A stretch of 42,471 bases of DNA from positions 1-42,471 of the IMG/VR virus record IMGVR_UViG_2513237219_000005. One strand, given 5' to 3'. Shown one piece after another: positions 5,770 to 6,662 of this stretch. This DNA comes from a virus. Its lineage: Duplodnaviria > Heunggongvirae > Uroviricota > Caudoviricetes. The notes beneath the pieces are model-generated. The model did no database searches. It worked only from the letters and a program-made list of their open reading frames with translations, and had not been told where the DNA came from. The translations under genes and the position numbers were made by a program. Position 1 is the first letter of the stretch, and each line of letters starts with the position of its first letter.

Positions 5770-5778
5770 AAAACCCCC

Positions 5779-5803
5779 ATAAAAAAACCAGCCGAAGCTG
5801 GTT
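5779..5803 (-). terminator. Intrinsic terminator (minus strand)
   Basis: Hairpin CCAGC-TTCG-GCTGG followed by a T7 run on the minus strand, just upstream of the baseplate hub gene. Confidence 0.6.
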
Positions 5804-5991
5804 TGGTATCAATTATCTCTTAGTAACTAAGCTACATCAGTGTGAAGTAAGGCTTTTCCGCTGCAATGGCACACATTCACAAGGTGTATTAGGATATGTT
5901 TGCAACAAGTAAGCATTGAAAATCAATTTCAGCCATGAAGCCGCCATAGAGTGGACCTGCACCATCGCATTATTGACTACAGGAGTAACAA

Positions 5992-6282
5992 ATGGGATTT
6001 AGATTTCGTAAAAGAATCCGGATTGCGCCCGGACTCGCGATCAACATTAGTAAAAGCGGAGTAAGCACTTCAATTGGTGGTAAAGGTTCCACCATTAACA
6101 TCGGGAAAAAAGGCGTAAAGATGACAAATGGCCTTCCCGGCACGGGGCTGTCGCATACCACTAACCTTTACTCTCCCGGGAAATCGACAGAAAAAAAACA
6201 ACTTACTCATAAGCAAAAAATAATTAGAAACATCCTGTTCGTAATTATTGTGTTTATTATAATTAAAGCTCAATATTTTTGA
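5992..6282 (+). CDS. DUF4236-like small protein with C-terminal transmembrane helix (moron gene)
   Basis: N-terminus MGFRFRKRIRIAPGLAINISKSGVSTSIGGKG matches the DUF4236 signature as recalled; C-terminal hydrophobic stretch IIRNILFVIIVFIII. Opposite strand to the tail operon. Confidence 0.6.
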   Translation: MGFRFRKRIRIAPGLAINISKSGVSTSIGGKGSTINIGKKGVKMTNGLPGTGLSHTTNLYSPGKSTEKKQLTHKQKIIRNILFVIIVFIIIKAQYF

Positions 6283-6287
6283 CGCAT

Positions 6288-6318
6288 GCCCGCCTATCTG
6301 GCGGGCTATTTTACTTTT
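6288..6318 (+). terminator. Intrinsic terminator (plus strand) after the DUF4236-like gene
   Basis: GCCCGCC-TATCT-GGCGGGC hairpin followed by TATTTTACTTTT; overlaps the stop of the converging minus-strand gene. Confidence 0.55.
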
Positions 6319-6650
6319 CGGCAGTCGTATGTTGCATACTGACGCGGCGAATCCATGCTGGCTTGCAACCACTGTGCGTTGAGAATGGCTTTGCCGTTTC
6401 GATTGATGTACTCAAGACCAACCCATCTTCCAGGCTGATCGGTAGCCATACGCCAATCCATCTTGATATTGTTATAATCGCCTTTGTTTTTCAGGAAGGT
6501 GATTTTTTGCATTTCTGGCTTTGCGCCATTGATTCTGGCTAAGCCATCATCTGCCCAATGGATTTTAAAATCACCACATTGCTGATCCGCAAAAGCGGGT
6601 GCTGATATAAGCACCGCGAACACGGTAACAGTGCAAAGTAAATGTCTCAC
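6306..6650 (-). CDS. Small secreted (periplasmic) protein, moron gene
   Basis: GTG start with GAGGTGG Shine-Dalgarno; signal peptide with AFA-DQ cleavage site; 2 Cys in the mature part; no homolog recognised. Confidence 0.6.
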   Translation of the reverse strand: MRHLLCTVTVFAVLISAPAFADQQCGDFKIHWADDGLARINGAKPEMQKITFLKNKGDYNNIKMDWRMATDQPGRWVGLEYINRNGKAILNAQWLQASMDSPRQYATYDCRKVK

Positions 6651-6662
6651 GGCCCCACCTCA

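Follow-up and report, generated by a model that had tools for sequence, protein, structure and literature searches.

Organization of the locus

The DNA analysed, hereafter the window, was the IMG/VR virus record IMGVR_UViG_2513237219_000005 over its whole length of 42,471 nt, a complete temperate phage genome encoding an integrase (41278-42471), a CI-like S24 repressor (34294-34986), NinB and RusA. The locus described here is a gap of about 0.9 kb in its minus-strand late operon, located between the genes for the baseplate hub and the gpV-like baseplate spike, in which a plus-strand gene for a DUF4236 protein of 96 amino acids (aa) and a minus-strand gene for a 114-aa exported protein with a beta-barrel as predicted fold (hereafter the barrel) converge. 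The locus very probably consists of one exchangeable gene, that of DUF4236, and one lineage-conserved accessory gene, that of the barrel. The features are detailed in Table 1.

Table 1. Features of the hub-spike locus, with positions in the window
Feature	Position	Strand	Characteristics
gpV-like baseplate spike gene	5029..5769	minus	PF18352 E=8.4e-42, Apex motif 3.5e-8; RefSeq 'phage baseplate assembly protein V'; spike-side border of the slot
Late-strand intrinsic terminator	5785..5804	minus	AAACCAGC-TTCG-GCTGGTTT followed by T7; 8-bp stem; -11.9 kcal/mol
Exchangeable single-gene cassette (upstream region, DUF4236 gene and hairpin)	5793..6320		blastn breakpoints
Non-coding region upstream of DUF4236, 187 nt	5805..5991	plus	leader TTGACTACAGGAG-N7-ATG at ~5953-5991
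DUF4236 gene, 96 aa, ATG start	5992..6282	plus	PF14020 E=1.8e-20
DUF4236 terminator hairpin, between the two convergent genes	6288..6306	plus	GCCCGCC-TATCT-GGCGGGC followed by TATTTTACTTTT; 7 G-C pairs, T-rich tail; -16.7 kcal/mol
Exported barrel gene, 114 aa, GTG start	6306..6650	minus	phrog_3443 E=6.9e-46
Spacer from hub stop (TAG) to GTG, 12 nt, with the GAGGTG Shine-Dalgarno sequence	6651..6662	minus	direct reading
Baseplate hub gene	6663..7727	minus	phrog_196 'baseplate hub' E=2.4e-83; last ~12-20 codons (~6663-6711) in the variable module

For comparison, 54-64 Escherichia coli genomes, 11 GTDB genomes, 80 IMG/VR contigs and phage records were used. The compared loci were obtained mostly via the 114-aa protein or its flanks, and the 100 scorable loci via the 114-aa gene; many of them are near-identical, the unique hub-plus-barrel combinations being 83. 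A prophage of E. coli TOK-001 is 99.4% identical to the window, and RefSeq annotates both small genes there with the same coordinates.

Both genes had been proposed in a first-pass annotation made from the sequence alone, the first as a plus-strand DUF4236-like gene with a C-terminal transmembrane (TM) helix and the second as a minus-strand signal-peptide gene with a strong Shine-Dalgarno sequence and GTG start, and both descriptions were correct in strand, length and type, including the hydrophobic C-terminus of the former and the GAGGTG sequence 5 nt ahead of the GTG of the latter. The insertion had been placed between baseplate and tail genes; the gap in the minus-strand operon exists, but its two flanking genes, hub and gpV-like spike, are both baseplate genes.

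The exchangeable cassette and the conserved barrel gene

The gene order hub, barrel, variable slot, spike and gp25-like gene was found in 100/100 scorable loci. The barrel gene was directly behind the hub gene in 100 of these 100 loci, all fetched via this gene, including relatives at 40-57% protein identity. On the minus strand its start reads TAG-TGAGGTGGGGCC-GTG, with the Shine-Dalgarno sequence abutting the hub stop; in relatives, the distance between hub and barrel genes is small, up to 12 nt, or the genes overlap, the overlaps (negative gaps) being partly an artefact of the start-codon rule applied. In E. coli M172-1 (L012), found by its flanking DNA, the barrel gene is replaced by an unrelated gene for a 240-aa lipoprotein-like protein (1851-2573, signal LTSC), which had no Pfam or PADLOC match.

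DUF4236 occupied the slot in 22/100 loci and was antisense to the late operon in 22/22. In blastn alignments of the window with relatives holding other cargo, homology breaks off at 5787-5807 and resumes at 6303-6322, precisely on the stop codon of the barrel gene. These breakpoints (~5793-6320) enclose DUF4236 alone, and therefore the exchangeable "moron" is one gene and not two. The G+C content was 0.41-0.47 over ~5700-6750 against 0.52-0.60 in the flanks. The DUF4236 gene has most of the sequence marks of a moron, as most collinear relatives lack it, it runs against the late operon and a terminator of its own follows it; its cassette also deviates in G+C content. The 114-aa gene, on the contrary, is not absent from collinear relatives, and it is a lineage-conserved accessory gene inside the late operon rather than an insert.

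The first-pass annotation had read both genes as a two-gene moron of cargo insulated from late transcription, and had pointed to relatives lacking the insert as a comparison. The variability of the DUF4236 cassette, its absence from 78/100 loci, its antisense orientation and its own terminator agree with that description; the barrel gene lies outside the cassette, is present in the 78 loci without DUF4236, themselves retrieved through it, and is embedded in the late operon. It is thus very unlikely that the two genes form one horizontally acquired unit whose membrane and periplasmic products act as a pair. The genes are indeed adjacent, convergent and both low in G+C, their convergent pairing recurs in E. 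coli LHM10-1, E. coli AZ147, Serratia fonticola and Klebsiella phage GZ7, and contact between an inner-membrane anchor and a periplasmic partner is at least conceivable. Nevertheless, 78/100 loci carry the barrel without DUF4236, the cassette boundary falls exactly on the barrel stop codon, and many phages with DUF4236 have no member of the barrel family. Moreover, the DUF4236 cassette is 98.6-100% identical across E. coli genomes and is combined there with barrel alleles of 78-100% identity, and the DUF4236 domain would be cytoplasmic, with only about four residues beyond the membrane anchor.

Cargo of the variable slot

The slot ranged from 62 to 4126 nt in length across loci. Apart from DUF4236, its cargo included Doc (Fic, PF02661) with Phd in 9 loci, a HEPN-like pair in 5 loci (a call based only on an R-x5-H motif read by eye), small signal-peptide proteins of several kinds (9, 8, 2 and 2 loci), multi-pass and single-pass membrane proteins, a 181-aa cysteine-rich protein and extra barrel paralogues. 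The slot is an accessory-gene hotspot that belongs to a known kind, the moron type, and its contents are exchanged by recombination between related prophages.

In 12 loci (L004, L011, L013, L018, L035, L040, L081, L083, L084, L088, L108 and L109) the slot holds an open reading frame (ORF) of up to 122 aa that is antisense to the late operon and is represented by L088:3850-4218 (minus); it contains a hydrophobic segment and matches EACC1 weakly, below threshold (E=0.0011). This ORF was unannotated in the RefSeq records checked, in which only a 53-aa late-strand ORF is annotated.

DUF4236 in the same orientation was found in the group of the window, in E. coli LHM10-1 (L016) and in E. coli AZ147 and about 30 other genomes (L017); the same antisense slot is also occupied by DUF4236 in Serratia fonticola (L025), Klebsiella phage GZ7 and Wanchaivirus. 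In the diverged lineages, identity to the window copy was 51-68% for DUF4236, 62-76% for the hub and 50-69% for the spike. At least four diverged lineages have the gene in this same slot, where it has diverged in step with the backbone, a picture that suggests frequent replacement during a long residence and not a recent insertion; DUF4236 looks like an old, recurrent occupant of the slot. The leader TTGACTACAGGAG precedes the DUF4236 ATG in three of the four diverged lineages and is common to L016 and L017. The minus-strand ORFs 5970-6161 and 6070-6372, antisense to DUF4236, were rejected as non-coding shadows, being conserved only together with DUF4236, whose frame holds the Pfam signal.

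Characteristics of the DUF4236 protein

The match to PF14020 (DUF4236) scored 73.6 bits against a cutoff of 27 bits and aligned protein residues 3-55 with model positions 1-54 (of 55); nine PHROG families also matched. The AlphaFold2 model (predicted local distance difference test, pLDDT, 81) shows six strands in a beta-meander and one C-terminal helix (residues 73-95). Residues 1-60 are very basic, with a net charge of +10, and a C-terminal hydrophobic 15-mer was present in 45/47 short DUF4236 proteins. Relatives with the architectures DUF4236-TM-SH3_3 and DUF4236-FtsK_gamma exist, on account of which the DUF4236 domain is placed in the cytoplasm (N-in). The protein is thus predicted to comprise a basic cytoplasmic domain (1-60) and a C-terminal inner-membrane anchor (~73-95).

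The domain was found in 49 phage records; among these are genomes of 137-357 kb, of which some probably belong to strictly lytic phages. In unrelated phages, DUF4236 genes are also located within tail modules. In the Clostridioides siphophage phiCD38-2, gp15 (L111:3001-3642) is a DUF4236 protein encoded between gp14 ('bacterioGp15 family protein') and the tape-measure gene, and in the siphophage Acinetobacter phage Ab11510-phi (L112:3001-3324) the DUF4236 gene is just upstream of a ~4.9-kb gene, probably that of the tape-measure protein. DUF4236 had no match in PADLOC-DB v2, and no function for DUF4236/PF14020 was found in the searchable literature.

Characteristics of the exported barrel protein

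The match of the 114-aa protein to phrog_3443 spans residues 2-114 on a model of 115 positions, that is, similarity over the full length, and some homologues in the same position are named "STY1065/STY2022 family phage-derived protein" in RefSeq. Its Sec-type signal peptide comprises residues 1-21, with predicted cleavage AFA|DQ, and a simple signal-peptide rule was passed by 35/39 members of the family. Cys25 and Cys110 are invariant in the alignment of 39 sequences, and at least two mature cysteines are kept in 38/39 members, which is consistent with a periplasmic disulfide. The AlphaFold2 model (pLDDT 83) is an 8-stranded up-and-down beta-barrel. The ratio of nonsynonymous to synonymous substitution rates (dN/dS) was 0.10-0.15 overall, with 0.26-0.32 for the first 40 mature residues against 0.08-0.11 for the remainder; by these ratios, the barrel gene is under purifying selection.

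The family is small, with 86 clusters at 90% identity, and the clusters with source names all belong to Enterobacterales. A profile search of 1.84 billion representative proteins recovered only 56 representatives of the barrel family (at 50% identity) and no bridge to another family. Pfam gave no match for the 114-aa protein or for any of the 39 family members, and NCBIfam release 20 none for the 114-aa and DUF4236 proteins. The only match in PADLOC-DB v2, Cas11a with E=0.045, was regarded as noise. The family model and the conserved inhibitory loop motifs of the PliC/MliC lysozyme inhibitors did not fit the barrel, and literature searches returned no functional data for the STY1065/STY2022 family or for phage SEN34. 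Profile and structure searches, suggested in the first-pass annotation for both proteins, therefore gave families and folds (PF14020 for one; phrog_3443 and an 8-stranded barrel for the other) but no function.

A relationship of the barrel with avidin was considered, according to which the protein would be a divergent binder of biotin or some other small molecule and would alter the physiology of the lysogen, not its sensitivity to phages. Locally, at beta6-beta7, the motif RNGKAILNAQWLQAS resembles RNGKEVLKTMWLLRS of avidin, and hhalign of the barrel alignment A2 against chicken avidin gave a probability of 44% (E=2.3e-4). The probability for streptavidin, however, was only 2%, nanobodies scored equally well in the profile search of the Protein Data Bank (PDB), with a per-domain E=5.3, and none of the 39 family members matched an avidin model of Pfam (avidin/streptavidin family, PF01382) even at E up to 10. 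Avidin homology was accordingly rejected as a noise-level signal and avidin kept as a description of fold class only; with the profile search having recovered only the family itself, a role as avidin-like ligand binder has very little probability.

Hairpins, terminators and promoters

The region contains 4 terminator-like sites, compared with 2.9 +/- 1.8 in shuffled sequences, a count that is not above chance; two specific hairpins are credible because they are conserved in position and not by the number of sites. The first, at the end of the slot on the late strand, is followed by about seven T residues and lies ~15 nt before the spike ATG in 60/61 unique related upstream regions, whatever the cargo, and is consequently a feature of the whole locus type. 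Its stem variants keep pairing (AACCAGC/GCTGGTT, AACCCGC/GCGGGTT, AAGCCGC/GCGGCTT), and the particular stem of the window travels with the DUF4236 cassette. The second, between the convergent genes, is present in all four diverged DUF4236 lineages; its U-tract exists only on the DUF4236 strand, and by its sequence it should not terminate efficiently on the late strand. The pair of terminators described in the first-pass annotation as bracketing both genes is therefore real as hairpins but does not bracket them, the one at 6288-6306 being located between the two small genes.

Between the hub and the 114-aa gene there was no terminator, and the 12 nt are too few to hold a promoter. A terminator located inside the baseplate operon would fit lambdoid late antitermination. 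From the slot-end terminator it may further be supposed that some transcripts made without antitermination run through the barrel gene and the cargo and need to be stopped.

With Rfam, only isrK (an Hfq-binding small RNA) and Trp-leader matches were obtained, both driven by the terminator hairpin. The isrK match (5782-5864, minus) is sub-threshold, with 23.4 bits against a gathering threshold of 50; it extends over the slot-end terminator plus 60 nt on its upstream side and is probably due to that hairpin.

Variable hub tail and tandem arrays

A second variable block was delimited by blastn at 6534/6555-6692/6711, comprising the signal peptide and the first ~35 residues of the barrel, the spacer and the tail of the hub; the block DGVYIVKAIDYTGDTRGQAWYMDLMCFARG, which precedes the variable hub tail, is conserved. 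Among prophages whose hub N-terminal 200 residues are >95% identical, the last 20 hub residues showed 97% identity in those with matching barrel alleles (>=95%) and 50% in those with differing alleles (<80%). Neither the spike nor the remainder of the hub (96-100% identity among close relatives) depended on the barrel allele. Exchange as a swap-module thus involves the 5' part of the barrel gene and, from the hub gene, the last ~12-20 codons.

Units formed by a hub 3' remnant and a barrel gene were also found in tandem. Four such units with a period of 613-634 nt are present in Pseudescherichia vulneris (L022, 1-2900), and two in each of the loci L007 (4980-6972) and L009; in Serratia aquatilis (L027, 1-4300) a transposase gene interrupts a series of about seven copies or fragments of the barrel gene. 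The window has a single copy.

Proposed role of the locus

The barrel gene, the cargo slot and the late-strand terminator are interpreted, with fair probability, as a fixed accessory locus of the late baseplate operon with a role in exclusion at the level of the envelope. For the specific function of both proteins, our best guess, and a tentative one, is superinfection exclusion at the envelope by interference with genome entry of incoming phages. This function is preferred since the slot cargo is strongly biased towards envelope-targeted proteins and since HK97 gp15, P22 SieA, Cor, Llp and T4 Spackle provide precedents. The barrel would be translated from the late transcript, directly behind the hub gene, and would act in the periplasm. 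The DUF4236 protein would be produced in lysogens or at an early stage of infection, with the inner membrane as its site of action; as its gene is antisense to the late operon, its expression is presumed to occur when late transcription is off, and late transcription is expected to interfere with it. The slot-end terminator would stop non-antiterminated transcription of barrel and cargo from entering the spike and the downstream baseplate genes.

Several results weigh against this interpretation. No sigma-70 promoter with a match of 9/12 or better was found upstream of DUF4236 on the plus strand. A barrel promoter embedded in the 3' end of the hub gene (promoter-like site 6793-6765) was also rejected, given that conservation at third codon positions was uniform there and the hexamers were no more conserved than their neighbours. 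The presence of DUF4236 in the 137-357 kb phages, some probably lytic, indicates that it is probably not specific to lysogeny. PADLOC gave no match among ten other slot cargo proteins. Finally, the co-variation of hub tail and barrel could be plain physical linkage, as the two are 12 nt apart.

Alternatively, the barrel could serve the lytic cycle as a late exported protein, either protecting infected cells or debris-bound progeny, through inhibition of the tail-borne SLT transglycosylase or masking of receptors, or aiding lysis, with DUF4236 as the only lysogeny gene. The position of the barrel gene in the late operon with no promoter space of its own, its near universality in the lineage and its purifying selection are in accordance with this possibility, as is the C-terminal SLT lytic transglycosylase domain of the tape-measure protein (8639-10906; residues 589-689, E=6e-25). 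On the other hand, the conserved slot-end terminator makes most sense if some non-antiterminated transcription crosses barrel and cargo, the tandem arrays of divergent copies look like accumulated protective alleles, and no family-level match to a known inhibitor was found. A lytic-cycle role of the barrel is, in our opinion, rather unlikely.

That one or both small proteins are ordinary structural or assembly parts of the baseplate is highly improbable. Such a role could be suggested by the position of both genes between hub and spike, by the constancy of the barrel gene in the scored loci and by the recurrence of DUF4236 genes inside tail modules of unrelated phages. However, the Sec-type signal peptide of the family and the cysteines, consistent with a periplasmic disulfide, imply that the barrel would leave the cytoplasm, where tails are assembled; in L012 an unrelated lipoprotein-like protein takes its place; and DUF4236, which 78% of loci lack, is encoded against the direction of the late operon. 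The first-pass annotation had stated that conserved structural components of related virions would speak against its reading; neither protein looks like one, the barrel being exported with two cysteines and DUF4236 being optional and antisense, and from these traits neither is likely to be a virion part.

Within the envelope-exclusion reading, a further and quite doubtful elaboration is that hub tail and exported barrel form an allele-specific self-exclusion pair, with the DUF4236 cassette as an independent second layer of exclusion at the inner membrane. After sheath contraction, the incoming hub-spike tip would enter the periplasm, where the resident barrel would bind the matching determinant of the tail tip (the variable C-terminal tail of the hub or something linked to it) and prevent the delivery of the genome; an exchange of the hub tail together with the barrel N-terminus would let phages escape, and old copies would be kept as orphan arrays for protection. 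Such a pair, if true, would be the counterpart, in conflicts of phage against phage, of the diversification known for toxins and immunity proteins.

The locus represents a cleanly delimited cargo hotspot in the baseplate operon of a widespread group of temperate myoviruses of Enterobacterales, among them SEN34-like phages and prophage-derived phages of Klebsiella, E. coli and Citrobacter. Dozens of small envelope-targeted genes of the slot, most of them without Pfam assignment, are candidates for exclusion or envelope modification, and two families, DUF4236 and the STY1065/STY2022 barrels, are now open to testing. The polymorphic hub-tail/barrel module and its arrays are the part most deserving of experiment: if either protein blocks genome entry, they would add a new case of diversifying conflict between phages, and if neither does, the locus would be an ordinary moron site.

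Other features of the phage genome

The window is a lambdoid-regulated temperate myovirus prophage of E. coli, kin to Salmonella phage SEN34 (Brunovirus). The minus-strand late operon is long and encodes a contractile tail, with a Dit-like protein, a Pam3-gp18-like plug, the baseplate hub, the gpV-like spike, a gp25-like sheath initiator and a J/gp47 protein. The lysis genes form an S-R-Rz cassette of lambda-S-type holin, lysozyme and Rz. A 247-aa ORF (25388-26131, minus) between rusA and the holin gene is in the usual place of the late antiterminator Q and had no Pfam match. An exported inhibitor encoded by a phage could find a periplasmic target in the SLT domain of the tape-measure protein.

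The C-terminal half of the spike (5030-5320) is a separate swap-module, as many otherwise near-identical relatives have no homology exactly between 5029 and 5321; in relatives with this half swapped, the spike protein is only 65-72% identical to that of the window.

At the beginning of the window (1-1999), an alternate tail-fibre tip (565-972, plus; Gp53-like_C) and a tail-fibre assembly gene (982-1434, plus) are next to a serine invertase gene (1-594, minus; Resolvase E=4.6e-39), and these face a second assembly gene (1406-1999, minus). This arrangement resembles an invertible host-range switch of the Mu G-segment type.

Comparison with known systems

The superinfection-exclusion moron gp15 of phage HK97 is located between the tail assembly chaperone and tape-measure genes and is described as YebO-like (PMC3594210). 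As in the HK97/HK022 morons (Juhala et al. 2000; Cumby et al. 2012, as summarised in PMC3594210), the DUF4236 cassette adds a small gene to a tail-gene operon, with deviating G+C content and its own terminator, and is missing from collinear relatives. The DUF4236 product is, like HK97 gp15, a small predicted inner-membrane protein, and the DUF4236 gene of phiCD38-2, directly upstream of the tape-measure gene, recalls the placement of gp15. No link to gp15 at the level of families was seen, as the DUF4236 protein matches only PF14020 in Pfam and HK97 is not among its phage matches, no direct comparison of the two proteins having been run. The cassette also differs from the HK97 morons in being antisense to the late operon with no promoter recognised, and in being an old recurrent occupant of a slot and not a one-off addition.

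Accessory-gene and defence hotspots at fixed positions in temperate phage genomes were reportedly described for P2 and P4 by Rousset and colleagues in 2022. The slot resembles them in its fixed site between conserved genes, in its many alternative cargos, toxin-antitoxin genes included, and in exchange via flanking homology. In contrast to those hotspots, it lies within the baseplate operon, between hub and spike, is bounded by a conserved terminator and a conserved gene for an exported protein, and carries mostly small, envelope-targeted cargo with no PADLOC match.

T4 Spackle, Cor and Llp are small phage proteins exported to the envelope that block a later phage at the cell-wall or genome-entry step; Spackle, which is helical, targets the tail-tip lysozyme, and Cor and Llp are lipoproteins. 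The window phage shares with the setting of Spackle the delivery of a tail-borne SLT transglycosylase. The barrel, all-beta and 8-stranded, has no relation to these three proteins in sequence or fold. With respect to the avidin/streptavidin, lipocalin and PliC/MliC barrels, it had no significant sequence match, and their ligand-binding residues and inhibitor motifs are not established in it.

The contact-dependent inhibition (CDI) and Rhs polymorphic toxin systems possess arrays of orphan C-terminal domains and immunity genes. The variable part of the hub differs from theirs in measuring only ~12-20 residues and not being a toxin domain, and the upstream protein here is a virion baseplate hub. 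As in CDI and Rhs loci, however, a small gene is exchanged along with the variable 3' end of the large conserved gene immediately before it, and displaced units of a 3' remnant and a small gene stand in tandem, as in Pseudescherichia vulneris, in the manner of the orphan arrays of those systems.

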